Source of the DNA: an uncultured Clostridia bacterium
GTDB taxonomy: Bacteria > Bacillota > Clostridia > Christensenellales > UBA1242
Length of the DNA: 54,498 nucleotides
Reading direction: 5' to 3'
Assembly: GCA_945937975.1 (NCBI GenBank)
Contig: CAMEUD010000001.1
Span: 1 to 54,498 of the forward strand
In this document: piece by piece, positions 2,715 through 20,518 of the stretch
Numbering within the stretch: position 1 is the first letter of the stretch
How the letters are laid out: every line of letters starts with the position of its first letter
Translations under genes and position numbers: made by a program
The notes under the pieces: model-generated
The model's database searches: none
Told to the model about the DNA's origin: nothing
The model's input: only the letters and a program-made list of their open reading frames with translations

Positions 2715-4355
2715 ATGAATAAGTTAGAAGTTTTAGATTATATAAAAAATCATAATAAAGAGTATGGTGGTAAATTGGTGACTGAAAAAGGATTTAAAAA
2801 ACACTTTGAAGAGTTATATAATATTTTACAGTCAATGACATTTCCACCATATTCTGAAAAATGGGATTTTAAACAGAAACTATGGCATTTTTTAAGAGAT
2901 GATTATACTCAACATCTCTGTAAATGTGGTGGTGTTTTAAAATTCAGAAGTTTTTGGTTTGGATACAATGAATATTGTAAAGCGAATTGTCCATCTATGA
3001 TTGAAAACCAAGTGAAATGTGTTAAAGAAAAAAATAAATTAAAAACAAAGGAAGAAAAAGATAAAATTCAAGAGAAAGTCAGAAACACATTTCTGAAAAA
3101 ATATGGCGTTGAGAGATATTCACAGACAAAGGATTGGAAAGAAAAAACAATTCAGAAAAACCTTGAGAAGTATGGACAAGATTGGTATACGAAAACAGAT
3201 GAATATAAAATAAGATATGAACAACACTGTGAGAAAAAATATGGTACCGGAATCAAAAATTCTTTTCAAGATGAAAATGTAAAGAAACAGATACGAAAAA
3301 AGTTTTATGATAATTTCCTTAAAAATCATCCAAATGTAATTGAAGTAAAAGACAACACTTTAATATGTAAATGTACCGATTCAAATTGTACATTGTGTCA
3401 AGAAAAAATATATGAAATAGACAAAACAACATTTTCAGATAGAAATTATTATCATATAGATACTTGTACAAAAAGAACAACTCCACATGATCTATCATCT
3501 GGAATTGAAAAAAAACTATACAATTACATCAAATCCATATATGATGGTGTGATCATTGAAAATGACAGAAATATATTAAACGGAAAAGAAATTGATATTT
3601 ATCTTCCAGAATTAAAACTCGGTTTTGAATTCAATGGTGTTTATTGGCATAGTGAAATATATAAAGATAAAAAATATCACCAAGAGAAATCTCTTAATTG
3701 TTTAGATAAAGGTATTCAACTCATTCAGATATGGGAAGATGACTGGATATTCAGAAATGAGATAGTTAAGGATTTCATATTGTCAAAATTAGGAAAAACA
3801 TCTATAAATATAGGTGCTAGGAAATGTATTGTAAAAGATGTATCTAATTCAGAAGCATATCATTTTTTACAAACAAATCATATACAAGGTGGTGTTAAAA
3901 ATGGTTATACTATAGGGTTATATTATAATAATGAACTTGTAGAAGTTATGACATTCGGTGGTTTAAGAAAAAGTATGGGTTCAAATCCTATAAGTGGTCA
4001 TTATGAAATCTATAGAGTTTGTTCTAAATTAGGTTATAACATTCAAGGTGGATTCAGTAAATTACTTAAACATTTTGAAAATACATATAAACCTATCCAA
4101 ATTATTACTTATGCTAATTTAGATTATACTTATGGGAATGTTTATAATAAAACTGGTTTTCATAAAGATAAAATCTCAAAACCTACTTATACTTGGGTAG
4201 TTAATGGACAACGAAAACATCGTACGAATTTCAGAAAAAGCAAATTGAAAGAATGTATAGATAATCCAGATTTAACGGAAATTGAAGTTATGTATAACAG
4301 AAATTGTTGGAGATGTTGGGATAGTGGAAAGATAAAGTTTATTAAAAACTATTAA
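2715..4355 (+). CDS. Free-standing homing-endonuclease-like nuclease, paralogue 1 (Zn-ribbon-like N-domain, K.YG repeats, PD-(D/E)XK/Vsr-like core, extra C-terminal domain)
   Basis: It has its own terminator-promoter cassette upstream. The N-terminal ~90 aa are shared with ORFs 12825, 18487 and 19616 (F.QKLWHFL.DD, then C.CG..F..F..GY..YC...C). There are three 23-aa K.YG modules. EIDIYLPELKLGFEFNGVYWH...IQIWEDDW resembles DUF559/Vsr-type PD-(D/E)XK cores. The last ~180 aa (ARKCIVKDVSNSEAYHFLQTNHIQGG...) form an additional uncharacterised domain. Confidence 0.6.
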   Translation: MNKLEVLDYIKNHNKEYGGKLVTEKGFKKHFEELYNILQSMTFPPYSEKWDFKQKLWHFLRDDYTQHLCKCGGVLKFRSFWFGYNEYCKANCPSMIENQVKCVKEKNKLKTKEEKDKIQEKVRNTFLKKYGVERYSQTKDWKEKTIQKNLEKYGQDWYTKTDEYKIRYEQHCEKKYGTGIKNSFQDENVKKQIRKKFYDNFLKNHPNVIEVKDNTLICKCTDSNCTLCQEKIYEIDKTTFSDRNYYHIDTCTKRTTPHDLSSGIEKKLYNYIKSIYDGVIIENDRNILNGKEIDIYLPELKLGFEFNGVYWHSEIYKDKKYHQEKSLNCLDKGIQLIQIWEDDWIFRNEIVKDFILSKLGKTSINIGARKCIVKDVSNSEAYHFLQTNHIQGGVKNGYTIGLYYNNELVEVMTFGGLRKSMGSNPISGHYEIYRVCSKLGYNIQGGFSKLLKHFENTYKPIQIITYANLDYTYGNVYNKTGFHKDKISKPTYTWVVNGQRKHRTNFRKSKLKECIDNPDLTEIEVMYNRNCWRCWDSGKIKFIKNY

Positions 4356-4357
4356 AT

Positions 4358-4365
4358 CATAAATA
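4358..4365 (+). promoter_or_regulatory. Class-B promoter-like motif CATAAATA (T4 late-promoter-like)
   Basis: The context is TCATAAATAATTATA, ending 27 nt upstream of ATG 4392. Confidence 0.45.
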
Positions 4366-4391
4366 ATTATATACTATTATAATATAAATCT

Positions 4392-4670
4392 ATGAAAAAG
4401 ATTTCTGATAATTATTTAACTGAAGCACAAAAGATAGAAGTTGAAATCGCTTCAGAAAAAATTCTTAAACTTATTAATGAAAATAAGGGTGAGATTGATG
4501 AAGGTTTACTAGGAAGTATTATAGGTGGATTAGGTGGATTGACATTTGGTCCCGCAATCGGTAAGGCTATATGTAAAGCGTTGGGTATAGAAAGAGGTAT
4601 GTTATATAATCTCTTGACTAGTAGAGCATTTACTACAGCAGTTGCATCATATATCGGATATAAACAATAA
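4392..4670 (+). CDS. Small glycine-zipper-type protein, function unknown
   Basis: 92 aa. The segment GLLGSIIGGLGGLTFGPAIGKAICKALG is hydrophobic and glycine-zipper-like. A CATAAATA motif ends 27 nt upstream. It lies on the same strand as the flanking structural genes. Confidence 0.5.
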   Translation: MKKISDNYLTEAQKIEVEIASEKILKLINENKGEIDEGLLGSIIGGLGGLTFGPAIGKAICKALGIERGMLYNLLTSRAFTTAVASYIGYKQ

Positions 4671-4679
4671 ATATAAATT

Positions 4680-5069
4680 ATGAATTTAAAAGCAATTTCA
4701 GAACAAACCAAGATAAAGGATTTTGTCGAAATATATAACGATAATCTGAATGAAATTAATATTGAGATGATTAAAATGCAATCACAAATTAGTTCACTAC
4801 AACAACGTGTAGATGAGGTAAGAAATAATGTAAATAGAAATCTCAATAATTTTCATACTATGGTGATTAATCTGATTGATACAGAGATAGGCAGTGTTAA
4901 AAATGATGTACGATTAATTAAGGACAATATAGGAATGTTAAATTCAAGTATTGGTGATAAACCTACTGAAAAACCAGATGATGTAGAAGATTCAGATATG
5001 ACTGACGCATCTGATGATGTTTCTGTCAATAATGGTGATGAATCAACTGAAATCCCAGATGATTTGTAA
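4680..5069 (+). CDS. Coiled-coil protein with acidic C-terminal tail, function unknown
   Basis: 129 aa. The central part is heptad-like and N/Q/L-rich. The tail is acidic (PDDVEDSDMTDASDDVS..DESTEIPDDL). It sits tightly packed between structural genes. Confidence 0.5.
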   Translation: MNLKAISEQTKIKDFVEIYNDNLNEINIEMIKMQSQISSLQQRVDEVRNNVNRNLNNFHTMVINLIDTEIGSVKNDVRLIKDNIGMLNSSIGDKPTEKPDDVEDSDMTDASDDVSVNNGDESTEIPDDL

Positions 5070-5140
5070 GATTCAGATATGGATGATGTTACTACTAATT
5101 AATTTCAATTTAACAAATATACAAATTAAATTTACATTAA

Positions 5141-8100
5141 ATGAGTGAAAAACAAATGGATTATGTAAATATAGACAAAATCCAACCTAATGATATTATT
5201 GCAAATTCACAACTTACAATTAATAGAAATTTTGCAGAACTTGCCGAGAAATTGAATAATATAATTCATCTTCTTGGCACAAATGGTGTATTCGATAATT
5301 ATTACCCAATTGATATTGAATGGAATAAATCTGATAATGGTATGATTTATGGTAATATGATTCTTAATGATGAATTAGAAACAGAATTACCAACACAACC
5401 ATTACCATTTGCAACTCAAGAAATGGGTGGTATATTGAGTACAACATCACAGGCAATCGCCGGCAATAAAACTTTTATCAATGATATAATATTATCATAT
5501 GATAAGCTTAATAAAAAATGGAGTTCATTAAAAGGTATTGATAGTAGACCTATTATTACCCAATACCCTAATAGTGTCGTTATTGGTGATCCATCAGATC
5601 CAAAAAAATCAATAAGTATTAATTATAAAGATGGTAAGGTTGTAAGTATTACATCTGGAGTATTTGATACAGAACAAATAAAAAGCGATTTTACTGACTA
5701 TCTAAATAGTGAATTAGCAAAACTTCAAGAAAAAATAATTTCTGGAATCACAGATGCTAATAAAAAGTTATGTGATTATTTCAAAATTCCTTTCGACCAA
5801 CAAAACGATAAAAAAATTGAAAATTGGTGGGGTAATACACATATCACTACTGAAAATAATACATTTATGATTTCTGGATCTCTAAATCAGAAACATTTCA
5901 TACCTTGGGATATCCTTGATATTCCAGACAATCATATTGGTGATACATATGTTGATATTGCGAATAGAAAGTGTTATATTTATCTTTCTGAAAAAAATAA
6001 TTATATTTGGACAGAACTTGATGGCGAACAGTTTAAAGGTATTATTCAAATATTATTAGATGCCGCAAATGCTTTAAGTGTTACCGATGGTATGTCAAGA
6101 ACATTTGTCAGTAATAATTGTCCAGAACCTCCATATGATAAAGGTGATATGTGGATTAAAACAGATAATCAAAATAACGCAGAATTACTTTACTGTATTA
6201 AATCAAAAAAAGCAGATGAAAAAGGTGATGAAAAGGATTGGGGGTCATTTACTGCTTATATTAAAGAAGATGCTCTTGATGCGTGGAAAAATGATTTGGA
6301 AGAACAATTAAAAAATCAATTAGATAAGAAAATATCTAATTGGTTTGGTGTTGGTTCTCCTGAAGGCGAGGACGGAAACCAAAAAAGACCTTGGTTAGAT
6401 GATTCTGATAGTGACTTTGATGAAGATAAATTCCACGAAAATGATATATATACAGATATAGGTAAACTCCCACAAGGAGAATCTGATGACGATCCTGATG
6501 TGTCAGCAACTGCTGGTTATACATGGGCATTTCTTAAACAAGATAATACATATAAGTGGATTAAAACTGGACAAATGTCTGCATTTGAACAGTTATTACA
6601 ATCTATTGGTGGTATTGACGGTATTAAAGATGGTTTAAGAGATTATTATTATGTTACTTATGGATATTGGAAACAAGAAGAACCTAAACATACACATAAA
6701 GTTGGTGATATTTGGGTTGTTAAGATTGATAATACTAATCCTAAGAATAATAATAAGAACTATCTTGAAAATGAGGTCTATATGTGTATGAAATCAGATG
6801 AAAAAAATCCTCATAAAGGTTGGGACAGCACACATTGGATGAGAATATTAAGTTCAACTGATTATAATGATTTAGTGGAAAAAATATCAAATACACAATC
6901 ATCATTAGATTCAATTAATAGAAAATTCACATCATTAAATGATGATAATGTATTTAGTCTTTTAGAAAAAATAACTATTAGAAATGAATGGTTAAAAATT
7001 AGTGGTGAATCAAAAGATTATTATGAGTCTAATAATCATAATAGACCTACTAGTACTGAAAATTTGTTGAACTATTATATTAATGGTTCATTTCATAACA
7101 CATATAAAATCATTCAGGATAGTAAGTTAGAATCATCAATTGATCAAAGTATATTATCAGGATATAAACAGTCATTCTTGATATTATCTAAGTATTTAAT
7201 TTCTTGTAAGTTGTTTGAGAATAGTGACACTCAGATAAGTGACATATCTCAACCATCATCAAAAAGTACAAATGCAAACACAGGAGATATCATAGATGAT
7301 AATATTTCTGTAGAAATAGTACAAAGACCAACGTTTAAAGATACATTACTATCTTATTTTACAGATTATTATACAAAAGAACAAAATATTTTAATCATTC
7401 TCCAAACACTAAAGACCATAAAGACACAAACTGATGGTCAAATTAGACAGTTTGCGGGTAACTGTCCTGTTTGGAAATATAAGTTCCCAGATTTTGAAAA
7501 TTGGGATTATGCTGATCATTTAGGTGATGTTTACAGAGATGTTAGTTCTGGAAATCCTACATCTGGTTGGTTATGGAGATTTACAGAAGGAGATCTAGAA
7601 GAAAATTGCAAAAAAGAAGATTTTCCTAATCCTACAGGTACTTTACCTATACCAAAAAATTTAGTCATTGAGGATAGTGATAGTGATAGTGATAGTGATA
7701 ATAATAAGATCTATCATTGGCATCATGAAACATCAAAAGAATTAGAAGATTTAGCAAACCGACTTGAAGAGTTAGCAAACAAATATCAAAATAGTGATGA
7801 TGATGATTTCACTTTGTTTGTCAAAAAACCAAATCCTTATATTTATCAAGCAGGAGATATCTGGATTGTTCATAAGGATGATTATAATGACAATAAAGGT
7901 GTTGAGTGTATGCCTAAAAACAATAATCAATATAGTTGTGCTAAACAAGGTGATTTCTTAGTTGCGATAAGTTCCAATACTACTGACACTGACGGTAAAC
8001 ATAATCCAAATGATTGGGAACTCACAGATGTTTCTGAATCCATCAAACAAAGCACTTTAGAAAAAAGTGGTTTTGATGTCGTAACTGATGGTACAACAAA

Positions 8101-11065
8101 TATTGAAGGTGGATTAGTTTTAACAAATCTTATACTTATGAAAGATGTTAAATCTGATAAAGTTCAAGGAGGTATAAGTGGTAAAAAAGACGACAGAGTT
8201 GGGTTATTCTTTGGGGATAGTTATGATATTGCTTATCAATATGCAAATCAATTTCCATTTGAGGATTATAAACAAAAATATAACTCTGAAAAAGACGAAA
8301 CTAAAAAGGAAAACATTGTCAATAATGTTAGTAATTTATTAAACGAATTAAATAAATCTTTACCAAAAGGTATAACTCAAGAATCTACTAAGAATGATAT
8401 AGGTTCATTATATTGGTTATTAACTCGATATAATTGGGCTCACGATGCTGTGAAAACAGGTATAAGAAATTATTTTAACGATAAACCTTCTATAGGTGAT
8501 GATTATGGGAGTGCAGATACAATACGAATATATGTTGACACACAACCCAAACACCCATCTGTTTTAATAACTAAAGATGGTAAGGGTAGTAATATCGGTG
8601 GATGTTATATTGATGATTTATCTAAACTACGTGTACCTAGTGATCACATTGATAACTTGAGTGTTAATACATTAAAAGCTATTGAAGATGGTTCTACATG
8701 TGTTGCAAAAGTGGACAATTCATCATTTATGATTGAAGATGGTAAGGCATATATTAAAATGTCTTTATACAATGGACAACCTTTGGTTACCGGTTGTGAC
8801 AAGGATGGAAATGTTGTATTTGAAATCGGTGGTCATACAACTAATGGTACAGCTAATTATCAATACAATGATACAGTATTCAATATCTTGGTTAATTCAA
8901 ATGATTTAGATAAAATGTCATTGACAGATGTTGAAAAATCTCGTGCTGTTGTTAATTTACCTAAAGTTTCTATTGTCCCTAATTGGAATAATGGTGTTAA
9001 TGAGTTTAAATTAACAGATATTCACTTTGAATATAAAATTGGTACTAAAAATCAATATATTCAATATGAATGGAATGATTTAGAAAATGTTAAAGGCAAA
9101 CCTATATCTCAATATGGTTCTGAAACTCTATTAAGTAAATTAGAATCAATCTATCCAACCAACTGCACAAATAGAAAAGTTACATATAATGTGGGTACAA
9201 AAAACCAAATTATTTCTGACACAACAAGTTCAACCGATAAAAATAATTGGTGTGTTAATCCTGATGATGGTGGTTTAAAATTTTATTCACAAACAAAATC
9301 TTTAGAAGATTTACTTTGTATTGGAATTAACTTATTAGCAGACTCTGTTGATATAAATGATATGAAAGTATATGCAAGAGGACCTGAACCTAATACAAAA
9401 AGAATGTACGATCCATTAAATGTTGAATCAGTAACTTATAGTGATAATATTTATTATTATTCATGCATGTCTTCACGTCTATATCAATTGGTTGAGAAAA
9501 ATTCACATCTAAATGATGAGAATTTAATAGCTAACAAACAAAACAACGACATCAAAGACCTAATTTTAGCTCAAATTAATGATAATGATACAAACGAATA
9601 TAAAAAAGAAAATATTTATGTAACAACTGGGGATGATACCCCATCTGATGAAAATGTTACAGTTATTGTCCGACCTAATTCAACTGATAGTGTTGTTGGT
9701 AAAGATGATTATAAGTATGAGTATAAAATTGGTAGTGGGTTTACCACAATTACCCAATATTTAGTAAAAGATAGTGATTATAACTTCGAGTATTTTAAAG
9801 ATATAACAATCATTAACACTTATGTATATAATATATCGGATATATTAAATAGCGGATACTTGGAAAAAAACAATTACTATGGTTTTTGGAAAACAGGTAC
9901 ATTATATATTGTCAAATTTTATAATAGAGGATCCTTATTTTATGTGAATTGTTATGATTCTAATGGACTCAATTCTAAAGGGTATGATAATCTATCAAAG
10001 CTTATACCACAGGACTGGGTATTGGGTCATAAAGACGACCAAGACGATGTATTTACAGAACCATATATTAAATTTATATATACATTTTTCGACAACAAAT
10101 ATGGTGGTAATAAAAACAATTATTTTTATTTTATAACGAACACATCTGACTTGGTTAAGTATAAGTCTAATTATTTATACTATGATTCTGATAAGGCTCA
10201 TATTAAATTTAACATCCCAAATAATACGAATTACAATGATAAAGATTATTACTTATATCCAACAGATTCTATACAAAACCTAATAAATGGGTTAAATTCA
10301 TTAGAAAAAGATGGTTATACTTGGCTAAATATAAATGACTCGAAAAAAATTGAATCTGTAAGAAATAATTTATTATTATCAACGAACAATCCATATTGGT
10401 CGTCAATTAAATCATACTTAAAAGGTAGTTCTGTTCAATTACCAAAATTATATGATGTGAAATTTAGGGCAAAATATCAATATAATGAAAAAAATTATGG
10501 TGCATTATATTATAATTGGTCAGATAGTGTTATTTGTAGATCTAATAATAGTGTAATATCAGATAATACTACTGTTGATAATACTAAATATGTTGTGTCT
10601 GATTTTATGTGTAAATATGGAGATAACAACATCATATCTTATAAAGCTCACACAAATGTTAAACCACAAATACAATGTAGTATAATGAATATTTCAAGTG
10701 GAGAGGATATTACAGATATTGAAAATATTACATATGTGTATGCATTGGATAGTACAATAGAAGGTTTTTCATTAGAACAAAATGGTTATCTTAAAGTTAC
10801 TGAAAATAAATCAAGTAGTCCTAGACAATGTAAGATTAATATCAAAATTAAATATAATGACCATGGCACTATTGTTATTGTTGGAAGTGAGTCAATTATT
10901 GTGACTCAAGAATGTGTAGTTACAAAAACATATTTACACGAAAATCCCAGTATTGCACAAAATTTTGATCATAATTTTAGTATTTTAGACAACACATATA
11001 AGGAAGCATATGATGCAATAGTGAATTTTGATAAAATAGAATCTGGTAGTATGGCAACTCCATAA
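5141..11065 (+). CDS. Giant tail-fibre/host-recognition-like structural protein (1974 aa)
   Basis: Uninterrupted 5.9-kb ORF. The N-terminus (IDKIQPNDIIANSQLTINRNFAELAEKLNNI) resembles the start of many phage fibre proteins. A G-D-x-(W/Y) motif recurs (KGDMWIKTD, VGDIWVVKID, AGDIWIVHKDD, IGDTYVDI, LGDVYRDV). There is an SDSDSDSD linker. The remainder is N/T/Y/D-rich and has a beta-rich composition. Confidence 0.55.
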   Translation: MSEKQMDYVNIDKIQPNDIIANSQLTINRNFAELAEKLNNIIHLLGTNGVFDNYYPIDIEWNKSDNGMIYGNMILNDELETELPTQPLPFATQEMGGILSTTSQAIAGNKTFINDIILSYDKLNKKWSSLKGIDSRPIITQYPNSVVIGDPSDPKKSISINYKDGKVVSITSGVFDTEQIKSDFTDYLNSELAKLQEKIISGITDANKKLCDYFKIPFDQQNDKKIENWWGNTHITTENNTFMISGSLNQKHFIPWDILDIPDNHIGDTYVDIANRKCYIYLSEKNNYIWTELDGEQFKGIIQILLDAANALSVTDGMSRTFVSNNCPEPPYDKGDMWIKTDNQNNAELLYCIKSKKADEKGDEKDWGSFTAYIKEDALDAWKNDLEEQLKNQLDKKISNWFGVGSPEGEDGNQKRPWLDDSDSDFDEDKFHENDIYTDIGKLPQGESDDDPDVSATAGYTWAFLKQDNTYKWIKTGQMSAFEQLLQSIGGIDGIKDGLRDYYYVTYGYWKQEEPKHTHKVGDIWVVKIDNTNPKNNNKNYLENEVYMCMKSDEKNPHKGWDSTHWMRILSSTDYNDLVEKISNTQSSLDSINRKFTSLNDDNVFSLLEKITIRNEWLKISGESKDYYESNNHNRPTSTENLLNYYINGSFHNTYKIIQDSKLESSIDQSILSGYKQSFLILSKYLISCKLFENSDTQISDISQPSSKSTNANTGDIIDDNISVEIVQRPTFKDTLLSYFTDYYTKEQNILIILQTLKTIKTQTDGQIRQFAGNCPVWKYKFPDFENWDYADHLGDVYRDVSSGNPTSGWLWRFTEGDLEENCKKEDFPNPTGTLPIPKNLVIEDSDSDSDSDNNKIYHWHHETSKELEDLANRLEELANKYQNSDDDDFTLFVKKPNPYIYQAGDIWIVHKDDYNDNKGVECMPKNNNQYSCAKQGDFLVAISSNTTDTDGKHNPNDWELTDVSESIKQSTLEKSGFDVVTDGTTNIEGGLVLTNLILMKDVKSDKVQGGISGKKDDRVGLFFGDSYDIAYQYANQFPFEDYKQKYNSEKDETKKENIVNNVSNLLNELNKSLPKGITQESTKNDIGSLYWLLTRYNWAHDAVKTGIRNYFNDKPSIGDDYGSADTIRIYVDTQPKHPSVLITKDGKGSNIGGCYIDDLSKLRVPSDHIDNLSVNTLKAIEDGSTCVAKVDNSSFMIEDGKAYIKMSLYNGQPLVTGCDKDGNVVFEIGGHTTNGTANYQYNDTVFNILVNSNDLDKMSLTDVEKSRAVVNLPKVSIVPNWNNGVNEFKLTDIHFEYKIGTKNQYIQYEWNDLENVKGKPISQYGSETLLSKLESIYPTNCTNRKVTYNVGTKNQIISDTTSSTDKNNWCVNPDDGGLKFYSQTKSLEDLLCIGINLLADSVDINDMKVYARGPEPNTKRMYDPLNVESVTYSDNIYYYSCMSSRLYQLVEKNSHLNDENLIANKQNNDIKDLILAQINDNDTNEYKKENIYVTTGDDTPSDENVTVIVRPNSTDSVVGKDDYKYEYKIGSGFTTITQYLVKDSDYNFEYFKDITIINTYVYNISDILNSGYLEKNNYYGFWKTGTLYIVKFYNRGSLFYVNCYDSNGLNSKGYDNLSKLIPQDWVLGHKDDQDDVFTEPYIKFIYTFFDNKYGGNKNNYFYFITNTSDLVKYKSNYLYYDSDKAHIKFNIPNNTNYNDKDYYLYPTDSIQNLINGLNSLEKDGYTWLNINDSKKIESVRNNLLLSTNNPYWSSIKSYLKGSSVQLPKLYDVKFRAKYQYNEKNYGALYYNWSDSVICRSNNSVISDNTTVDNTKYVVSDFMCKYGDNNIISYKAHTNVKPQIQCSIMNISSGEDITDIENITYVYALDSTIEGFSLEQNGYLKVTENKSSSPRQCKINIKIKYNDHGTIVIVGSESIIVTQECVVTKTYLHENPSIAQNFDHNFSILDNTYKEAYDAIVNFDKIESGSMATP
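7673..7700 (+). repeat. (GATAGT)n hexanucleotide microsatellite encoding SDSDSDSD
   Basis: There are four full GATAGT units plus a partial unit inside the 1974-aa ORF. The repeat is in frame, so slippage would change linker length without breaking the ORF. Confidence 0.8.
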
Positions 11066-11068
11066 ATA
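11061..11068 (+). promoter_or_regulatory. Class-B promoter-like motif CATAAATA
   Basis: It overlaps the stop of the 1974-aa ORF and ends 34 nt upstream of the portal ATG. Confidence 0.45.
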
Positions 11069-11101
11069 TCTTATTAAGTTTAATTTTAAATAGTTAATTA
11101 T

Positions 11102-12823: not shown

Positions 12824-12824
12824 T

Positions 12825-13982
12825 ATGACGAAAAATAATCTGTTACATTACATACAGAATGAAACAAATAAAAATCATGTCAGAGAAAATTATTTTAAAA
12901 AACATTTTAATGATTTTTATTCTGACATGATTTTATATACATATCCTGAAGAATTTTCATTTCCCCAAAAATTATACCATTATTTGAATGATGATATGAA
13001 TTTTACAATGGGTAAATGTAAAATTTGTGGGAAAAGATGTCATTATAAAAATTTTACATCAGGATATTATACATATTGTTCTAGAAAATGTAGTTTACGA
13101 GATGAGGAAACACAAAATAAAATCAAACAGACATCTTTAGATAGATATGGTGTTGAGTCTTATTCAAAAACACAAGAATATTTGCATAAAGTCAAAGAAA
13201 CAAATCTTTCAAAATACGGTGTTGACTCTTATTCAAAAACTACTGAATATAAAAATAAAACTAAACAAACCAACCTTTCTAAATATGGTGTTGAACATGT
13301 TTTGCAAAATAGTGAAATTTTACATAAAAAGGAACAAACTTGTTTAGACAAATATGGTGTTAAAAATTTTTCTCAAAGTGATGGATATTTAGAATTGTCA
13401 AAAAAATCAAACCTTTCTAAATATGGTGTTGAACATGTTTTACAAAATAGTGAAATTTTACATAAAAAGGAACAAACTTGTTTAGATAAATATGGTGTTA
13501 AAAATTTCACACAAAGTGATATATTTTATGATAAGATATATGATGTATACCTACCTAAAAAGGAACAAACTTGTTTAGATAAATATGGAAAAAAGAGTTT
13601 TTCACAAACATCAGAATATCATTTAAAAAAAACTCATAAAATATATAGTAAATTATTTGATATTTCTTTTGATTCAAGTTGGGAATTAAAATGTGCAGAA
13701 TTCTGTTTCTATAATAATATAGTTTTTCAATATCAACCAAATATTTTATTTGAATATCATTTTAATAATGACACACATTATTATCAACCTGATTTTCTCA
13801 TAAATGGTAAATTATATGAAATAAAGGGTGATCATTTCTTTGAAGGTGATAAAATGATTAATCCATATGACAGAAATCAAGATGGATTATATGAAGCAAA
13901 ACACCAATGTATGATAAAAAATAATGTTATAATATTGAAAAATGCTGAATTAGAAAATTTAAAATTATATTTACATAAATAA
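12825..13982 (+). CDS. Free-standing homing-endonuclease-like nuclease, paralogue 2
   Basis: The ATG lies 1 nt after the portal stop. It shares the N-domain (FPQKLYHYLNDD..GKCKICGKRCHYKNFTSGYYTYCSRKCS). It has seven 23-aa K.YG modules. The core YQPDFLINGKLYEIKGD is a canonical PD...ExK motif. Confidence 0.6.
   Translation: MTKNNLLHYIQNETNKNHVRENYFKKHFNDFYSDMILYTYPEEFSFPQKLYHYLNDDMNFTMGKCKICGKRCHYKNFTSGYYTYCSRKCSLRDEETQNKIKQTSLDRYGVESYSKTQEYLHKVKETNLSKYGVDSYSKTTEYKNKTKQTNLSKYGVEHVLQNSEILHKKEQTCLDKYGVKNFSQSDGYLELSKKSNLSKYGVEHVLQNSEILHKKEQTCLDKYGVKNFTQSDIFYDKIYDVYLPKKEQTCLDKYGKKSFSQTSEYHLKKTHKIYSKLFDISFDSSWELKCAEFCFYNNIVFQYQPNILFEYHFNNDTHYYQPDFLINGKLYEIKGDHFFEGDKMINPYDRNQDGLYEAKHQCMIKNNVIILKNAELENLKLYLHK
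13272..13588 (+). repeat. Near-identical 138-nt-period tandem duplication (two 23-aa K.YG module pairs) plus a third partial copy
   Basis: 13272-13382 and 13410-13520 differ at only a few positions (both encode NLSKYGVEHVLQNSEILHKKEQTCLDKYGVKNF.QSD). The stretch aaaaaggaacaaacttgtttagataaatatgg recurs at about 13557-13588. Confidence 0.85.
13974..13981 (+). promoter_or_regulatory. Class-B promoter-like motif CATAAATA
   Basis: It overlaps the stop of ORF 12825 and ends 29 nt upstream of the protease-scaffold ATG. Confidence 0.45.
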
Positions 13983-14009
13983 TATATAAATTATAATTAA
14001 TTATATACA

Positions 14010-16088
14010 ATGAAAGATAAAAAGTTACTTATAGTAGAACGTTGTAACTCTAACCTTCAAATTATCGAAGAACAACTTGAAGGACAAGATAAGAAATCTA
14101 TTGTATTAACAGGTCTTTTTACTACATTTGGCACTAAGAATAGAAATGGTCGTATTTATGAAAGTGCAGATTTTATACCTCATGTTGAAGCTTTAAAAGA
14201 AGCCATTAAAAATAGGACTCTACTTGGTGAAATGGATCATCCACATTCATTTGAAACTTCTCTTTCAAATGTATCTCATGTTGTGGAAAGTTTGGAATAT
14301 GATCCTCAACAAAATGCAATTGTAGGTAAAATCCGTTTACTTAATACTGCAAGAGGATTAGATGCACAATCATTAGTCAGAGATGGTATTCCTTTGAATA
14401 TTAGTTCTCGTGCTGCTGGTACAGTAGATGAATCAGGAAGAGTTAAACTTCAACAACTATTTACTTATGACTTGGTTGCCGAGCCTGGTTTTGCCAATGC
14501 ACAATTACACCAAATTAATGAAGGTGTAAATTATAATAATATTTCTGATAAATCAAGAAGTATTCTTGTAGCATTAAATGAAAATTATAAACCAAACTTG
14601 AATGAAAGTTATGGACTTTATAATGATAATGTAGATGTTTATGAAATTTCTGAAAACAATACATTACCAGATGTTGCTAAAGAAGGTTCTAAATCGACAG
14701 ATTTCGGTGAGGCACAAGCAACAGCAAATGTTACCAATGTGGCCAACAATGGTACTATTGTAAATGATGGTAAAGGTATGAAACAACCAGAACCAATAGA
14801 AGTAGATATAAAAAATAACAACAATATGGATAATGGACAGTATATACTATACTCTGATTTCCAAAAGTATAGTGAACATTTGTCAGATATTATTACTGAC
14901 TTACAAGATGCCATTGCAAACTATAAAGTAGAACTCGCAAACATGAAAGATGACAAGAGTCGTCCAACTGAAAAGTTTGATGCTTCCAATGTTGACAATA
15001 CCATGATTGCAAGTTTAGTTGCCAAAGAAGTCGCTAAAGCTACAAAAGATCTCGCAGTAGATAGTGATGAACAAGCCGCAGCAGTTGTAAAGGCAGAAGA
15101 AATGGAAGAAAAGTATAATAATCTTGTAAGTTATATGAAATATCTTGCTGAAAACCTTGATAAATCAATTACATATCAAGATTATGTAACAGAAGAAACA
15201 AATAAGATTATTGCTCACAACAACTATTTAGCAGAAAAGATGAATCAAATGGTTGATCATCAAGATTATCTTGCTGAAAATATGAATAATATGATTGCAC
15301 ATCAAGATTATCTCGCTGAAAATCTAAATGATACAATTGGTTATCAAAATTATGTAGCGGAAATGCTTGATAAGTCTATTGATTATTCTAATATGATCGC
15401 TGAAGAGCAAAACAAAACAATTGCTTACAACAACTATTTATCAGAAAAGATGAATCAAATGGTTGATCATCAAGATTATCTTGCTGAAAATATGAATAGT
15501 ATGATTAGCCATCAAGATTATCTTGCTGAAAATATGAATAATATGATTAACCATACTGATTATATTGTTGAATCAATTAATTCTAAAAATGAAAATATTA
15601 TTGAAGAAAATGAAGTTGTAGAAGTTCCTGCAAATAAAACTTCTAAACCTCAATTTAATTCTAAAGAATATCAATCATTGTTAAGTGAAAAGTTAAATTC
15701 CCTTATTAATACTGTTAAAACTCAATATGCAGAAGTTAAACAAATGGAAAAAGAAGCTCTTGAAGAATCAAGACAAAGAACTTCTGAAGCACAGAACTTT
15801 AACTTGATTAACTATATTCCAAAAAGACTTTCTGAAAGATGGTCAAAACTTTCTGACACAAGAAAACAAGAGATTTTAGCAGAGTCAAAAATGTTTGTAA
15901 TTAATAATGATGCAAGTGCAGAATATTTCTGGAATACTCGTGACTTGAGAGAAAAACAAATCCAAGTTGAAAAGATTGAAGAAAATGTAACAGCACAACC
16001 TCTTACTCCACTTAATCAAAATGTAATGTCTGATGAACGTTACAAAATGATGATGGAACAAATTAAGAGAAATATGCGTAAATATTAA
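14010..16088 (+). CDS. Prohead protease (T4 gp21-like) fused to repeat-built scaffolding domain
   Basis: The N-terminus KNRNGRIYESADFIPHVEALKEAIKNRTLLGEMDHP and NISSRAAGT align by eye with T4 gp21 (NRNKRLYPKRILEKAV...ALGELNHP, GVSSRGLGS). The following ~490 aa are acidic and coiled-coil, and include eleven 14-aa repeats (consensus near HQDYLAENMNNM). Confidence 0.75.
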   Translation: MKDKKLLIVERCNSNLQIIEEQLEGQDKKSIVLTGLFTTFGTKNRNGRIYESADFIPHVEALKEAIKNRTLLGEMDHPHSFETSLSNVSHVVESLEYDPQQNAIVGKIRLLNTARGLDAQSLVRDGIPLNISSRAAGTVDESGRVKLQQLFTYDLVAEPGFANAQLHQINEGVNYNNISDKSRSILVALNENYKPNLNESYGLYNDNVDVYEISENNTLPDVAKEGSKSTDFGEAQATANVTNVANNGTIVNDGKGMKQPEPIEVDIKNNNNMDNGQYILYSDFQKYSEHLSDIITDLQDAIANYKVELANMKDDKSRPTEKFDASNVDNTMIASLVAKEVAKATKDLAVDSDEQAAAVVKAEEMEEKYNNLVSYMKYLAENLDKSITYQDYVTEETNKIIAHNNYLAEKMNQMVDHQDYLAENMNNMIAHQDYLAENLNDTIGYQNYVAEMLDKSIDYSNMIAEEQNKTIAYNNYLSEKMNQMVDHQDYLAENMNSMISHQDYLAENMNNMINHTDYIVESINSKNENIIEENEVVEVPANKTSKPQFNSKEYQSLLSEKLNSLINTVKTQYAEVKQMEKEALEESRQRTSEAQNFNLINYIPKRLSERWSKLSDTRKQEILAESKMFVINNDASAEYFWNTRDLREKQIQVEKIEENVTAQPLTPLNQNVMSDERYKMMMEQIKRNMRKY
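15126..15587 (+). repeat. Eleven tandem 42-nt (14-aa) repeats in the scaffold domain, with an internal near-identical 210-nt-period duplication
   Basis: The units run VSYMKYLAENLDKS / ITYQDYVTEETNKI / IAHNNYLAEKMNQM / VDHQDYLAENMNNM / IAHQDYLAENLNDT / IGYQNYVAEMLDKS / IDYSNMIAEEQNKT / IAYNNYLSEKMNQM / VDHQDYLAENMNSM / ISHQDYLAENMNNM / INHTDYIVESINSK. About 113 nt starting at 15210 and at 15420 are nearly identical. Confidence 0.85.
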
Positions 16089-16094
16089 TCCTAT

Positions 16095-16124
16095 AAGAGT
16101 GGTTGAAATATACTACTCTTTTAT
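16095..16124 (+). terminator. Weak terminator-like hairpin
   Basis: The arms AAGAGT and ACTCTT enclose a 14-nt loop and are followed by TTTTAT. Confidence 0.35.
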
Positions 16125-16146
16125 ACAAACATAAACAACTAAAACG

Positions 16147-16566
16147 ATGTCAGAAATACTTCAGATAGTTATTACTAATTGTATAACTTTTCTCACCACA
16201 GGTGGTATAGGAAGTATTTTCTACTTCCGTTTACACAAAAGAATGAAAGAAGCGGAATTACACGCATCAGAAATCAGTAATTTATCTTCTTCAAATGATG
16301 AATGGATAAGATTGTATGAAACAGAAAGAGATGAAAAATCTAAACTGATGGAACAAAACCATATATTAAATGAAAGAATAAATAAATTACATGAAGATAA
16401 AGGATCACTTATTTCCAAATGTGAAAAAAAGGAAAGAATAATTTCTGAACTTAATTGGTACAGATGTGAAATTAATAGGTGTCCTTATAGAAAACCACCA
16501 AGAAAATATGGTGATTTTGATTTACCTGAAGATGCAATTATTCCAAAAGAAGAAAATGAAAATTAA
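16147..16566 (+). CDS. Membrane-anchored coiled-coil protein, function unknown
   Basis: 139 aa. It has an N-terminal hydrophobic segment (ILQIVITNCITFLTTGGIGSIFYF), then a coiled-coil stretch and a Cys-containing C-terminus (WYRCEINRCPYRKPP). It lies between the protease-scaffold gene and the MCP gene. Confidence 0.45.
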   Translation: MSEILQIVITNCITFLTTGGIGSIFYFRLHKRMKEAELHASEISNLSSSNDEWIRLYETERDEKSKLMEQNHILNERINKLHEDKGSLISKCEKKERIISELNWYRCEINRCPYRKPPRKYGDFDLPEDAIIPKEENEN

Positions 16567-16571
16567 ATTTT

Positions 16572-16579
16572 CATAAATA
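16572..16579 (+). promoter_or_regulatory. Class-B promoter-like motif TTTTCATAAATATAT
   Basis: It lies 94 nt upstream of the MCP ATG, which implies a long A-rich leader. Confidence 0.5.
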
Positions 16580-16672
16580 TATTAATAAAAAAAATAAATT
16601 ATCTAAAAGTTAATAGAAGCAAAGAACTTTTAGTTGATTCAATAAAAATAAAAAATAAAATTTAGAAAAATT

Positions 16673-18394
16673 ATGTTACAAAATGTTATTTTAAACGAAG
16701 CTGAAACCATGAAAACATGGTCAACCTTCATTACTGAGTCAACTGGTGTTACTGATAGAAGCAAGTTAGCTTGGATGAGTAAATATTGTGCTTTCCACGA
16801 TATGAATGAAAAGCAACAACTTAATGAGAGTGCTCTCGGTTATGCACATCTCAATCCAAATATGAATGTTGGTGGTATGGGTGCTCCTTATTTCCCAGGT
16901 GCAAATCCTAACAACGGTTATGATGGTGTTAGAGGTTCTGGTGATAACCCATTCTCACTTCTTCCACTTGCTGTTCAAGTAGCTGCTCAAACTATCGCTC
17001 TTGATCTCGTACCAGTAGTTCCAATGCAAGGTCCTCTCGGTATTCTCCAATACATGGATTATGTATATGAAGGCGGTAAGACAAACCTCCGTCCTCGTTT
17101 TGAAGGCGAATGGCCAATGGGTGATGAATCAAAAACTGCACCTCTTATGGTTAAGTTAACTCTTGCTAAGGGTGATGGTAGTGATGAAGATTCAGAAATT
17201 GGTATTACTGATGCACTCAACCACGCAAAACTTTTTGAAGAACTCAAAAAAGTATTCTACCCCGGTATGAATGCAATTCCTGTAGGTGAAGATTATGAAC
17301 TTAACTTCGTGGCTCTCGCTCGTATTGATGGTAAGCCTATCTTCCAAGTTAAGGAAACTCCTTATCACTATGCTCAAGCTAAGGTTAATGGTGGTGAAGC
17401 AGGTGCAAGCAGCCTTGCTGAACTTTTCTTCTCTCAAGGTAAACAAGTTCTTGGTTATGATGTTGTTGACATCGACACCGTTAAGGCTCTTGAAGATTTC
17501 ATCCCTGGTTTCACAGGTGCTGGTTTCAAGGAAGGTAAGCCAATGTCTGCAAAGGCTTATGATCGTGCAACTGGTGAATCAACTCCTTCTAACATGATGT
17601 CTTTGAATGTATTCACTGAAAAGGTAGAAGCTAAGACTATCCAAGTTAAGGGTACTATCACTCGTGAACAAATCCAAGACCTCAAGGCTTATGGTATTGA
17701 CGCTCTTGCACAAGTTGAAGCAGAGCTCGTTAACGAACTCACTCAACATATCAATAGAGAACTTCTTGACACCATCTTTGAACTTGGTGAAAAAAACTAT
17801 CAAGAATCTCTCGCATTTGAAGGTATTAACCTCAATACTCACTTCACAACTGATGTAAACGAAGATCCTGCTGCTCATAAGGGTTATGTAGTATCTTATG
17901 TAGGTGGTGGTGCTGAAACTCTTGGTACAATTCAAAGAAGAATTATGACCAAAGTTCTTGCAGCTTCTAACCTTATCGCACAAAGAGGTCGTAGAGGTGC
18001 TGGTACCTTTGCAGTTTGCTCTGCAAGTATCGCAACCGCTCTCCAAGATTGTGCTGGTTTCGTGGCTTATCCACTTTCTAATACAGTTAACCAAAACGCT
18101 GGTTCTCTCTATCCCGTAGGTGCAATTAGTGGTGTATCTATCTATGTAGATCCTAACATGCCTTGGTCTGACCAAAGAATTGTTGTAGGTCGCAAGGGTA
18201 AAGACAACGAACCAGGCGTAGTATTCATGCCTTATTTAATGGCTGATAAACTTTCTTACCCAGCTGAAGGTATGGAAGGTGCTCCTGTAACTTCTTTGAA
18301 GTCACGTTACGCAATCGTTCGTGCAGGTCATCATCCACAACTCTACTATTACACTTTCAACATTGAATGTGGTAAGGGTGTTAGCCTTATTTAA
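16673..18394 (+). CDS. Major capsid protein (T4 gp23-like)
   Basis: 573 aa. SLLPLAVQVAAQTIALDLVPVVPMQGPLGILQYMDYVY matches the conserved gp23 segment (..IA.D...VQPM..P.G..). It follows the protease/scaffold gene. By eye it has more C-ending codons than its neighbours, which is the look of a highly expressed gene. CATAAATA lies 94 nt upstream and a strong terminator lies downstream. Confidence 0.8.
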   Translation: MLQNVILNEAETMKTWSTFITESTGVTDRSKLAWMSKYCAFHDMNEKQQLNESALGYAHLNPNMNVGGMGAPYFPGANPNNGYDGVRGSGDNPFSLLPLAVQVAAQTIALDLVPVVPMQGPLGILQYMDYVYEGGKTNLRPRFEGEWPMGDESKTAPLMVKLTLAKGDGSDEDSEIGITDALNHAKLFEELKKVFYPGMNAIPVGEDYELNFVALARIDGKPIFQVKETPYHYAQAKVNGGEAGASSLAELFFSQGKQVLGYDVVDIDTVKALEDFIPGFTGAGFKEGKPMSAKAYDRATGESTPSNMMSLNVFTEKVEAKTIQVKGTITREQIQDLKAYGIDALAQVEAELVNELTQHINRELLDTIFELGEKNYQESLAFEGINLNTHFTTDVNEDPAAHKGYVVSYVGGGAETLGTIQRRIMTKVLAASNLIAQRGRRGAGTFAVCSASIATALQDCAGFVAYPLSNTVNQNAGSLYPVGAISGVSIYVDPNMPWSDQRIVVGRKGKDNEPGVVFMPYLMADKLSYPAEGMEGAPVTSLKSRYAIVRAGHHPQLYYYTFNIECGKGVSLI

Positions 18395-18422
18395 TTAGAT
18401 GATTAACAAATAATTAAATACC

Positions 18423-18453
18423 AAGAGAGAGTTTTTTAACTCTCTCTTTTTTT
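18423..18453 (+). terminator. Rho-independent terminator after MCP
   Basis: AAGAGAGAG - loop TTTTTTAA - CTCTCTCTT, followed by a T-run. Confidence 0.8.
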
Positions 18454-18464
18454 GTTATTTTTTA
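18451..18464 (+). promoter_or_regulatory. Class-A promoter-like motif (TTTGTTATTTTTTA)
   Basis: It follows the MCP terminator T-run, about 25 nt upstream of ATG 18487. Confidence 0.5.
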
Positions 18465-18486
18465 TAAAAAACTACCCATTTGAAAT

Positions 18487-19638
18487 ATGACAAAGGAAGA
18501 AGTTTTTACATATTTTAATACAAAAGGAATAGACAAATCAGGATTTCTGAAAAAAGAATCTGGATTTAGTAAAACATATCCAGCTTTATATGAAGAATTA
18601 AAAACTTGGTCATATCCAAAGGAATTTACATTTACGCAATTGTTATATCATTTTTTACAAGATGATAATGAATTTAAATTAGGTATATGTCCTGTAGATA
18701 AAAATAGGTGTACTTTTTTAGGTTTTCGTAAAGGATATTCAGAATGTTGTTCTTTACATTGTTTACAGAATTATGATAAACATAAAGAAAAAATATTTAA
18801 TACCAAATTATTACATTATAATGATGGTTCATTTACAAATAGAGATAAATTCATAAAAACCATGAATGACAAATCAGATGATGATAAACTATCATCTAAT
18901 CACAAAAGAAGTGTATCTTTAAAACAAACATATAAAGAAAGAGGTGAACAAATAAATGATGCAAAATGTAATACCAAATTGATTAAATATGGTAATCCTA
19001 CATATAATAATAGAACAAAATTCATAGAAACATATAATAATAAAACAGATACTGAAAAACAATTGGCAATTCAATTGATGAAAGAAACCAAGAAACAGAG
19101 ATATAATGATGAAAACTATTGTAATTCTAAACAGATTAAAGAAACTGCAAATCAAAAAATGATAAATAAATATCCAGACATTATATCTATTAATGGTAAA
19201 ATATGTACTGTCAAATGTCCAAATTGTGGAAATACATATGAAATAAGTAAAAGAATGTTTATGCAAAGAATTACACATAATCATATTCCTTGTGTAATAT
19301 GTAATCCTAAAAGAAAATTTTGGTCTATTGGGGAAAAAGAAATGTGTGAATATATCAAATCCATATATTCAGGTGTTATTATAGAAAATGACCGAAAAAT
19401 TTTAAAACCATATGAAATAGATTGTTTTCTGCCAGATTTAAAAATTGGGTTTGAATATCAAGGTGATTTTTGGCATCATGATAAAAAGTGTAAATCTCGT
19501 GATAAAAAGAAAAAATCTATCGCAGATAATATTGGAATTGAAATATATTATGTGTGGGAAAGTGAATGGATAAATAATAATTCTGTTATAAAAGAAACAA
19601 TACTATCAATTATTAATGACAAAAGAAGAAATTTTTAA
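18487..19638 (+). CDS. Free-standing homing-endonuclease-like nuclease, paralogue 3
   Basis: It has its own terminator-promoter cassette. It shares the N-domain (FTQLLYHFLQDDNEFKLGICPVDKNRCTFLGFRKGYSECCSLHC). It has degenerate K..YG..Y.N modules and two CxxC pairs (CPNCGN, CVICNP). The core YEIDCFLPDLKIGFEYQGDFWHHD...YYVWESEW is close to that of paralogue 1. Confidence 0.6.
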   Translation: MTKEEVFTYFNTKGIDKSGFLKKESGFSKTYPALYEELKTWSYPKEFTFTQLLYHFLQDDNEFKLGICPVDKNRCTFLGFRKGYSECCSLHCLQNYDKHKEKIFNTKLLHYNDGSFTNRDKFIKTMNDKSDDDKLSSNHKRSVSLKQTYKERGEQINDAKCNTKLIKYGNPTYNNRTKFIETYNNKTDTEKQLAIQLMKETKKQRYNDENYCNSKQIKETANQKMINKYPDIISINGKICTVKCPNCGNTYEISKRMFMQRITHNHIPCVICNPKRKFWSIGEKEMCEYIKSIYSGVIIENDRKILKPYEIDCFLPDLKIGFEYQGDFWHHDKKCKSRDKKKKSIADNIGIEIYYVWESEWINNNSVIKETILSIINDKRRNF

Positions 19639-20518
19639 ATATCTGAAATCCATACAAGACAAATCTGGTGGGTTTAAAAAACAAGAATCAATTAAGAAAC
19701 ATTATCCAGAATTATATAATGAATTGATTAATTCAAATTTACCAGATTATTGGTCATTCACTCAAAAACTTTGGCATTTCTTACAGGATGATTATGAAGT
19801 ACACAGATGTAAATGTGGAAAAGAACTTAATTTTGTTGATTTTAAAAAAGGGTACAGAAAATACTGTTCAAAAACTTGTCCATATGTTATAGAACATAAT
19901 AAAAACACTATTTTACTTGCTCAAAAGACATCAACACAAATAGAATCAAGGCAACGAGCAATACAAACGATTAAAAATAAAAATGGTGGTGTTTTTTGGA
20001 CACAAGATGATATAAAAAGATTACGGAATACATATCAACAAAATAAATTACGGATATGTGAAAATAGAAGAAATACTATTAAAAAACACATAACTGAAAT
20101 GTCTGATTTAACAAATACTTCTATTAAAGGTTCATCTTCAAAATGTGAAATACAATTTTATAAATATTTGATTAGTAAATATGACTATGATGATATATTC
20201 CCACAATATATGGATATAGACAGATATCCATTCGCTTGTGATTTTTATATTAAGTCATTAGATTTGTTTATTGAAATCAATGGTATGTGGACACATGGTG
20301 GTCATCCATTTGATGAAAATAATGATGAAGATATGAAAAAATTAACCATATGGAGAACTAAAAATACAAAATTTTACAATCAAGCGATTTATGTTTGGAC
20401 AGATTTAGATGTTAGAAAAAGAAATATTGCAAAAAAGAACAAATTAAATTATATTGAACTTTTTTCCCATAATATATCTGAATTAATAATACAATTTGAA
20501 AATAAAAACATATTTTAG
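19616..20518 (+). CDS. Free-standing homing-endonuclease-like nuclease, paralogue 4
   Basis: The start overlaps paralogue 3 by 23 nt. It shares the N-domain (FTQKLWHFLQDDYEVHRCKCGKELNFVDFKKGYRKYCSKTC). The nuclease-like core is FACDFYIKSLDLFIEINGMWTHGG. Confidence 0.55.
   Translation: MTKEEIFKYLKSIQDKSGGFKKQESIKKHYPELYNELINSNLPDYWSFTQKLWHFLQDDYEVHRCKCGKELNFVDFKKGYRKYCSKTCPYVIEHNKNTILLAQKTSTQIESRQRAIQTIKNKNGGVFWTQDDIKRLRNTYQQNKLRICENRRNTIKKHITEMSDLTNTSIKGSSSKCEIQFYKYLISKYDYDDIFPQYMDIDRYPFACDFYIKSLDLFIEINGMWTHGGHPFDENNDEDMKKLTIWRTKNTKFYNQAIYVWTDLDVRKRNIAKKNKLNYIELFSHNISELIIQFENKNIF

Follow-up and report, generated by a model that had tools for sequence, protein, structure and literature searches.

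Free-standing homing endonuclease genes inserted beside structural or replication genes are well known in large phages. The Seg (GIY-YIG) and Mob (HNH) endonucleases of phage T4 follow this lifestyle: their genes are intergenic, adjoin conserved genes, occur patchily among relatives and are present as several paralogs per genome. Here we describe four open reading frames (ORFs) of the same lifestyle, whose predicted catalytic folds and DNA-binding domains are nevertheless unrelated to those of Seg and Mob. They lie between positions 2715 and 20518 of contig CAMEUD010000001.1, part of a 1.3 Mb metagenomic bin (~29% G+C) deposited as an uncultured Clostridia bacterium (GCA_945937975.1). The window analyzed here is this entire 54.5-kb contig (54,498 nt), and it is phage DNA. 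Our analysis makes it probable that the four ORFs are free-standing homing-type endonuclease genes of one modular superfamily (Hef-like/DUF7487), which colonized gaps in the structural module of a huge gut phage whose portal, protease and capsid genes are of T4 type.

The closest counterparts are Hef-like proteins. Hef of the T4-related phage U5 is an endonuclease cleaving nrdB according to a review (PMC2988022), and Taylor et al. placed Hef-type proteins in the Vsr-like EDxHD family (PMC3239194); U5 Hef is likened to the window proteins here by its published description. The annotated Hef-like family (PHROG 3339) includes proteins of the Klebsiella phages RaK2 and K64-1, the Campylobacter phages CP220/CPt10, the Dickeya phage LIMEstone (F-LimIII/VII/VIII/X) and the Acinetobacter phage KARL-1. 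Like ORF 2715 of the window, these genes are free-standing and adjoin conserved genes, which are those for baseplate and tail tube in the case of the LIMEstone copies. ORF 2715 also shares the domain order of the encoded proteins, with DUF7487 repeats (K.YG modules), a Vsr-like core and a Mom-like domain, and is 32% identical to the RaK2 protein over 100% of its length. The complete Hef-like layout is found in ORF 2715 only, whereas ORF 18487 lacks the Mom-like domain and ORFs 12825 and 19616 carry other cores on the same N-terminal domain (N-domain).

Two further enzymes resemble the nuclease cores. I-Bth0305I (PDB 3R3P), the prototype of the EDxHD nucleases, has the same catalytic core, built on the same residues (E, D, N/Q, H, D/E), and its DNA-binding region is likewise N-terminal to the nuclease. 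However, I-Bth0305I is intron-encoded and contacts DNA with two NUMOD2/helix-turn-helix (HTH)-like motifs, whereas the window proteins are free-standing and possess a zinc ribbon and K.YG modules. The core of ORF 12825 aligns with the junction-resolving T7 endonuclease I (gp3; PDB 1M0D, 2PFJ and 1FZR) at the catalytic E, PD and ExK. The T7 enzyme stands alone as a small, structure-specific dimer, whereas the ORF 12825 core is a C-terminal domain behind a long, putatively DNA-binding arm; moreover, the ORF 12825 gene behaves as a mobile insertion, unlike T7 endonuclease I.

Positions and shared N-terminal domain of the four genes

The four genes are located as follows.

2715..4355, + strand: HEG1 (ORF 2715), 546 aa, Hef-like homing endonuclease
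12825..13982, + strand: HEG2 (ORF 12825), 385 aa
18487..19638, + strand: HEG3 (ORF 18487), 383 aa
19616..20518, + strand: HEG4 (ORF 19616), 300 aa

All four ORFs lie where the initial annotation, a reading of the sequence alone, had placed them, PHROGs confirmed the tail sheath, portal and major capsid protein (MCP) genes as their neighbours, and the nuclease strings quoted at that time were all found in the translations. A gap of 73 nt with a terminator hairpin inside separates the sheath stop codon (2641) from ORF 2715, and a single nucleotide lies between the portal stop codon (12823) and the ATG of ORF 12825 at 12825. ORF 18487 follows the MCP stop codon (18394) and overlaps ORF 19616 by 23 nt. 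There is no overlap between ORF 19616 and the downstream exonuclease gene, because the latter really starts at 20589.

The four proteins do share the previously noted N-domain, being 31-39% identical to one another in the first ~120 aa by pairwise BLASTP (E 1e-15 to 1e-24). This domain of ~95 aa consists of an N-terminal helical part and a four-Cys zinc ribbon, and the AlphaFold2 models contain four short helices plus the ribbon. We aligned 25 unique paralogs from the bin and from related phages, here meaning ~22 IMG/VR contigs with portal and MCP ~80% identical to those of the window. The resulting consensus was E..FKK.FPE.Y...FP...F.F.QKL.HFL.DD...C..CG...F..GY..CS..C, and the pattern C-x(1,2)-C ... 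C-S-x2-C holds across these paralogs; in the N-domain of ORF 18487 the second Cys is lost. Searched by itself against 1.84 billion proteins, the N-domain retrieved only 124 clusters (50% identity) and was almost always N-terminal in the matched proteins. It is still without a named family. The NCBIfam search returned nothing meaningful for any of the four proteins, and a Foldseek comparison of the N-domain and repeat array of the ORF 12825 model with the PDB gave no significant solved relative, only weak PD-(D/E)xK, MYND and YacG-like hints. The zinc-ribbon and repeat regions have a net charge of +2 to +12. Predicted viral structures of the same layout are common in BFVD, with gut Myoviridae, Klosneuvirus, Marseillevirus and an iridovirus among their sources.

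Nuclease cores and domain layouts

Profile searches, the check suggested along with the initial annotation, assigned all four proteins to nuclease families. By sequence comparison, all four C-terminal nucleases fall into the PD-(D/E)xK superfamily, with intact catalytic residues. The following domains were delimited.

ORF 2715, aa 1-95 (nt 2715-2999): N-terminal helical and zinc-ribbon domain
ORF 2715, aa 96-206 (nt 3000-3332): K.YG helical modules, DUF7487
ORF 2715, aa 207-258 (nt 3333-3488): second Cys cluster, beta-hairpin domain
ORF 2715, aa 259-360 (nt 3489-3794): Vsr-like EDxHD nuclease (E265, D294, E305, N307, H312, E341/D342)
ORF 2715, aa 361-546 (nt 3795-4352): Mom-like GNAT domain
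ORF 12825, aa 1-93 (nt 12825-13103): N-domain
ORF 12825, aa 94-268 (nt 13104-13628): seven K.YG modules
ORF 12825, aa 269-385 (nt 13629-13979): T7 endonuclease I-like PD-(D/E)xK nuclease (S284, E287, D323, E332, K334)
ORF 18487, aa 279-383 (nt 19321-19635): Vsr-like EDxHD nuclease (E281, D310, E321, Q323, H328, E356)
ORF 19616, aa 166-300 (nt 20111-20515): divergent PD-(D/E)xK/Vsr-like nuclease (core CDF...IEINGxWTH)

The suggestion of a possibly new architecture is not supported. ORF 2715 matches the Hef-like family end to end (PHROG 3339, "homing endonuclease", E 2.8e-116, profile positions 26-535 of 536), the repeats are DUF7487, and homologues number in the thousands, in phages and giant viruses: ORF 2715 has more than 2,300 at E below 1e-10 and ORF 12825 more than 1,500, with giant viruses among the carriers of ORF 2715/12825 homologues. 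In tblastn searches, the "Hef-like homing endonuclease" genes of RaK2 and K64-1 covered 100% of ORF 2715, which also matched annotated Hef-like genes of Campylobacter phages and Lak phages. PHROG 3339 was partially matched by ORFs 12825 and 18487 (~3e-25), and by ORF 19616 with the N-domain only (E 0.0024).

A profile of the ORF 2715 family matched I-Bth0305I (PDB 3R3P; E 2e-4), and the columns of the catalytic D and H coincide in the alignment. Among 61 homologues, conservation of E265, D294, N307, H312 and E341/D342 is complete or at least 90%. The ORF 12825-family profile matched T7 endonuclease I (1M0D) at E 3.6e-6 with the S/E...PD...ExK residues aligned; among 68 homologues, S284, E287, D323 and E332 are invariant and K334 is at least 90% conserved. 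Searching the PDB with the ORF 12825 model (Foldseek) gave weak PD-(D/E)xK matches with E at least 0.3. ORF 18487 consists of the N-domain, a degenerate repeat region, a CxxC...CxxC cluster and the Vsr-like nuclease, with no Mom-like domain, and ORF 19616 of the N-domain, a short, basic, helical linker in which no clear K.YG modules are seen, and the divergent nuclease. The core of ORF 19616 has the Vsr-like residue pattern; by profile, it stands nearer to the T7 endonuclease I-like type (hhalign probability 98.7%, E 1.9e-16) than to the Hef type (93%, E 2.8e-7), and its direct PDB match was weak. Judged by its profile, this core is intermediate between the two types.

The location of the genes in a structural module, and the probable translational coupling of ORF 12825 to the portal gene (a 1-nt gap and no visible ribosome-binding site), would also suit DNA-binding regulators or structural accessory factors with inactive nuclease folds. 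However, all four window proteins have the catalytic residues, which are invariant or nearly so among the 61 and 68 homologues, and the genes are missing from most relatives. We consider such a role highly improbable.

Insertion sites in related phages

The occupancy of the junctions in the window and in the relatives (numbered with the prefix L) is given below.

Sheath to o4392: ORF 2715 in the window; mostly empty (92-137 nt) in relatives, with ORF 2715 orthologues (53-66% identity) in L010, L015 and L016/17/22
Portal to protease: ORF 12825 in the window; empty (61-150 nt) in all relatives except L016/17/22
Just before MCP: empty in the window; occupied in L016/17/22
MCP to exonuclease: ORFs 18487 and 19616 in the window; empty in L003 and L027, one or two nuclease genes in L006, L010, L017, L018 and L026

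Comparison of synteny, which had been proposed as a check, revealed presence/absence polymorphism at every junction and favours homing. Each insertion is precisely bounded by a terminator or stop codon on one side and by the next promoter-like motif on the other. ORF 2715 is preceded by the sheath terminator and followed by the promoter-like motif of the next gene. ORF 12825 takes the place of ~25 nt that separate the portal stop codon from a conserved intergenic motif, TTTTCATAAATA, inside which its own stop codon is located. The tandem pair after MCP has duplicated the motif TTGTTATWTTT.

In a tree of the N-domains, the sheath-site genes form one clade (support 98/97) and the ORF 19616-like genes of the MCP site another (99/96); each gene lineage keeps to one site. 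The N-domain groups do not follow the nuclease type, which indicates domain shuffling. Seven more paralogs were found on five other contigs of the bin, six of them beside recombinase, helicase or polymerase genes (UvsX-like recombinase, DnaB-like helicase, DNA helicase and pieces of DNA polymerase), and several are on the strand opposite to their neighbours.

Several observations concern the surroundings of such genes elsewhere. On the bin contigs C4 (10634-11836), C22 (255-1742) and C31 (1954-2526), DnaB-like helicase and DNA polymerase genes are seemingly broken up beside nuclease paralogs, with junctions that by eye appear intein-like (...LSHNS; DTDS then CAFD). Compared with window positions 18394-21347, the exonuclease gene 3' of MCP is inverted or relocated in several relatives (L011-L015, L021 and L029). 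The MCP 3' junction is therefore not only an insertion site but also a hotspot of rearrangement. In Lak-C1 (MK250029.1, 19951-23122) and Lak-A2 (MK250019.1, 510285-513735), a Hef-like match adjoins the major capsid gene, mirroring the window.

Terminators, promoter-like motif and expression

Around two of the junctions, the following signals were detected.

2669..2696, + strand: terminator hairpin after the sheath gene (12-bp stem and T-run)
2698..2708, + strand: promoter-like motif TTGTTATATTT, 6 nt before the ORF 2715 ATG
18423..18448, + strand: terminator hairpin after the MCP gene (hairpin scan)
18452..18462, + strand: promoter-like motif TTGTTATTTTT, upstream of ORF 18487
20552-20562: second copy of the promoter-like motif, preceding the exonuclease gene

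Two of the four genes had been credited with their own terminator-promoter cassettes. Hairpins and the motif TTGTTATWTTT do precede ORFs 2715 and 18487; however, a generic sigma-70 scan stayed at chance level (146 hits vs 131 expected in this 28% G+C DNA), and the hairpin at 2669-2696 belongs to the sheath gene because it is kept at the empty sheath sites of relatives (junctions compared with L001-L011). In contrast, the motif TTGTTATATTT occurs at occupied sheath junctions and is missing from empty ones. TTGTTATWTTT is a phage-specific motif with 19 copies vs 1.28 expected, mostly directly 5' of genes. Copies are located at 2698, 18452, 20552, 22740, 28220 (minus strand), 30584, 32060, 34436, 38529, 46709, 48029, 50614, 51824, 53335 and further positions, often fused to the T-run of a terminator. 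A second motif, CATAAATAnnWTATA, lies 5' of late structural genes in the window and in relatives.

In metatranscriptome contigs from the pig gut, MCP was well covered, the contigs ended at ~18396 and the nuclease genes were barely covered. This pattern fits insulation by the terminator but is suggestive only, as contig data cannot show the absence of RNA.

Probable homing and the possibility of domestication

Family membership, junction polymorphism in relatives and the nuclease profile assignments lend good support to the homing-nuclease interpretation already given in the initial annotation. A cycle compatible with the observed family membership, intact catalytic residues, precise intergenic placement, polymorphism, site-tied lineages and repeat-number variation can be sketched by analogy to Hef, Seg and Mob. 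The N-domain and the basic K.YG array would hold the enzyme on a long stretch of DNA. Cutting would be the task of the C-terminal domain, for which three interchangeable types exist: a Vsr-like EDxHD type in ORFs 2715 and 18487, one resembling T7 endonuclease I in ORF 12825 and an intermediate one in ORF 19616. During mixed infection, the enzyme would cut a nuclease-free allele near the 3' end of the sheath, portal or MCP gene, and recombinational repair from the nuclease-bearing genome would then copy the gene together with its flanks. It is by this analogy that we infer cleavage, target sites, a DNA-binding role of N-domain and repeats, and actual homing.

Several points weigh against this interpretation. 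ORFs 18487 and 19616 are present in all ten contigs with an identical MCP and ORF 12825 in five of the five that span the portal junction; because they occur in all identical-MCP contigs covering the region, these genes are fixed in this lineage and could be domesticated. No co-conversion signal was found among the sampled relatives (70-85% nucleotide identity): when flank identity close to the junctions was set against that at greater distance, nuclease-bearing relatives did not differ from nuclease-free ones, and their identity near the junctions was not higher. Orthologues at the same site are only 41-66% identical, compared with ~80% for the flanking genes, so the polymorphism could reflect old gains and losses instead of ongoing homing. 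Finally, the presumed DNA-binding role of N-domain and repeats rests on charge, position and analogy, and Foldseek returned no significant solved structural relative for either.

The genes might instead be domesticated nucleases serving the phage, and their positions relics of an old invasion; possible roles would be the exclusion of related phages, the degradation of host or competitor DNA, or the stimulation of recombination and amplification. Such a history would be in line with the missing co-conversion signal, with the fixation of the genes, which are intact in every one of the ten identical-MCP contigs as far as these cover the region, and with the copies of the phage promoter-like motif that ORFs 2715 and 18487 have for themselves. 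There are precedents as well: SegB is reported as a homing endonuclease of benefit to its phage (PMC13096335), and homing endonucleases have been found to mark genetic-exchange boundaries (PMC10448857). However, at each site the genes are missing from most relatives and are therefore dispensable, at least 11 paralogs lie beside classic homing targets, and site-bound lineages are the pattern expected from homing. The two interpretations also overlap, marker exclusion being a consequence of homing. We regard domestication as unlikely and favour homing-type endonucleases.

The K.YG repeat array

The 23-aa K.YG modules correspond to Pfam DUF7487 (PF24308; curated threshold 27 bits), of which we found no mention in the literature searched. 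Modules had been reported for all four proteins. They are clear in ORF 12825 (6-7 modules, 140.6 bits) and ORF 2715 (2-3 modules, 45 bits), both above the threshold, but ORFs 18487 and 19616 gave no DUF7487 match at E<1 and contain degenerate remnants below the thresholds of Pfam and of a module hidden Markov model. Each module is modelled by AlphaFold2 as one 15-residue helix plus a YG loop (pLDDT 90-92).

Two module pairs in ORF 12825 are near-identical copies, the result of a recent tandem duplication:

13272..13520, + strand: 138-nt tandem duplication comprising two K.YG modules, 1.8 copies, 95% identical

This duplication is missing from an otherwise 99% identical allele of ORF 12825, which encodes 339 aa and is shorter by exactly 46 residues, or two modules. 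Among 269 family proteins, module number ranges from 0 to 14. In one identical-MCP strain (L051:2591-3849), the copy of ORF 12825 has 100 extra nt in the repeat region that break the frame; either the allele is frameshifted and decaying, or the tandem repeat has been misassembled from short reads.

The NUMOD modules of I-TevI and I-HmuI and the TALE repeats are likewise short tandem helical units beside a nuclease, with varying unit number. The K.YG array differs from these in having no Pfam NUMOD match, no TALE-like hypervariable pair and no similar solved structure. One may ask whether it is a programmable DNA-reading domain comparable to TALE repeats, in which each module would correspond to one DNA step and few variable residues would set the target, as the initial annotation had hinted. 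The variable module number (0 to 14), the regular single helices in confident models and the basic character of the array are compatible with such a code. A logo of 1,258 unique modules revealed graded conservation (K4 0.88, T8 0.87, Y13 0.89, G14 0.95, Q/K20 0.99) with little conservation at positions 5, 7, 17 and 19 and at two inter-module residues, which could provide the variable residues, and one BFVD structural neighbour bears the label of NUMOD3, a nuclease-associated DNA-binding motif. However, this was the only neighbour so labelled, and Pfam NUMOD3 (PF07460) gave no match at E<1. The strong conservation at most module positions resembles backbone contact rather than base reading, and no TALE-like hypervariable pair was present in the logo, so that the array does not classify as TALE-like. 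Furthermore, the duplicated module pair in ORF 12825 is 95% identical, the 99%-identical allele lost two modules with nothing else changed, and in ORFs 18487 and 19616 the array is degenerate or missing altogether. These sequence features somewhat disfavour a modular DNA-reading code, which we think quite unlikely. Instead, the K.YG array may be an extendable DNA-tracking arm that makes mostly backbone contacts.

A Mom-like domain in ORF 2715

The C-terminal domain of ORF 2715, left unnamed in the first description, is predicted to adopt the GNAT fold of phage Mu Mom, an enzyme adding a carbamoylmethyl group to adenine N6. For the AlphaFold2 model (pLDDT 90.5), Mom (8BV8, chain A) was the best solved match (Foldseek E 1.6e-7 over 194 columns, with a target-length-normalised TM-score of 0.57). 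Helices 503-528, between strands 499-502 and 532-535 of the model, are at the place of the essential HTH-like insertion of Mom. Pfam Mom (PF25680) did not match ORF 2715 at E<1; a 69%-identical homologue (P0126) scored 30.0, vs a cut-off of 27.1. In a weak single-sequence hhalign alignment (E 0.017), Mom H58, R111 and Y159 (record numbering) aligned with the conserved H389, R434 and Y477, but Y59 and D149 are not kept (I390 and N468 in ORF 2715).

Unlike Mom, the Mom-like domain of ORF 2715 is fused to a nuclease. No nuclease fusions were mentioned in the literature searched on Mom, and none of the literature searched seems to discuss that Hef-like proteins combine a Vsr-like nuclease and a Mom-like domain. 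We know of no modifying activity for any Hef-like protein.

The orthologues of ORF 19616 at the MCP junction of relatives are longer than the window protein (547-587 aa; L010:16280-18022, L026:16550-18313, L018:17841-19493 and L017:19427-21070). They possess an extra C-terminal domain of ~270 aa, lacking in ORF 19616, with the invariant elements PM(A/S)GFGG ... ECYD ... CCPPFG, whose order and spacing resemble, by eye, the methyltransferase motifs I, II and IV. Pfam, PHROGs and PDB sequence and profile searches, as well as 304 homologues, gave no support for methyltransferase identity, which is a lead only.

It is conceivable, though improbable, that Hef-like enzymes are two-activity "cut and mark" proteins, i.e., a restriction-modification-like homing system in a single chain that includes the length-variable K.YG DNA-tracking arm. 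The Mom-like domain would modify adenines, or alternatively flip and read them, and the modification might protect the carrier genome against cutting by its own nuclease or contribute to target definition. The ~270-aa methyltransferase-resembling domain of the sister lineage at the MCP site might then be the same solution reached a second time.

Phage identity and neighbouring genes

PHROGs identified the following genes around the insertions.

26-2641: tail sheath
11102-12823: portal
14010-16088: prohead protease
16673-18394: MCP
after 20589: DNA polymerase exonuclease

Gene calls on identical contigs added the Pfam families Portal_T4, Peptidase_S77 and Gp23. At DNA level, megablast of the 18.6-kb region against the phage collection gave no match, and the nearest deposited phages are distant, namely a huge uncultured 462-kb phage (LR756500; 45% MCP identity) and the Lak megaphages (36%). 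The window appears to be part of a huge phage, because related IMG/VR contigs reach up to 411 kb. Among the samples in which it occurs are metagenomes and metatranscriptomes of the pig gut.

In the stretch from the sheath module to the portal, the 1974-aa gene at 5141-11065 (with a further segment at 4680-5069) is without a PHROG match and is itself variable cargo. The gap between o4392 and the portal ranges from 66 nt (L011-L013) to ~5.9 kb among relatives. The prohead protease-like gene contains ~7.5 copies of a 42-nt tandem repeat at 15234-15572 (68-82% matches), which encodes a 14-aa repeat.

Implications

The finding is largely ordinary, as the family has already been annotated as homing endonucleases. 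The pairing of a Vsr-like nuclease with a Mom-like domain, constant in Hef-like proteins, has seemingly gone unnoticed. The same N-domain and DUF7487 arm occur on three nuclease cores, in thousands of phage and giant-virus proteins; should this arm turn out to be an uncomplicated DNA-tracking module that can be lengthened, it could be of interest for enzyme engineering. For the Hef-like family itself, the ~22 relatives with their empty and filled sites constitute a natural experiment and provide ready-made candidate substrates for the mapping of cut sites.

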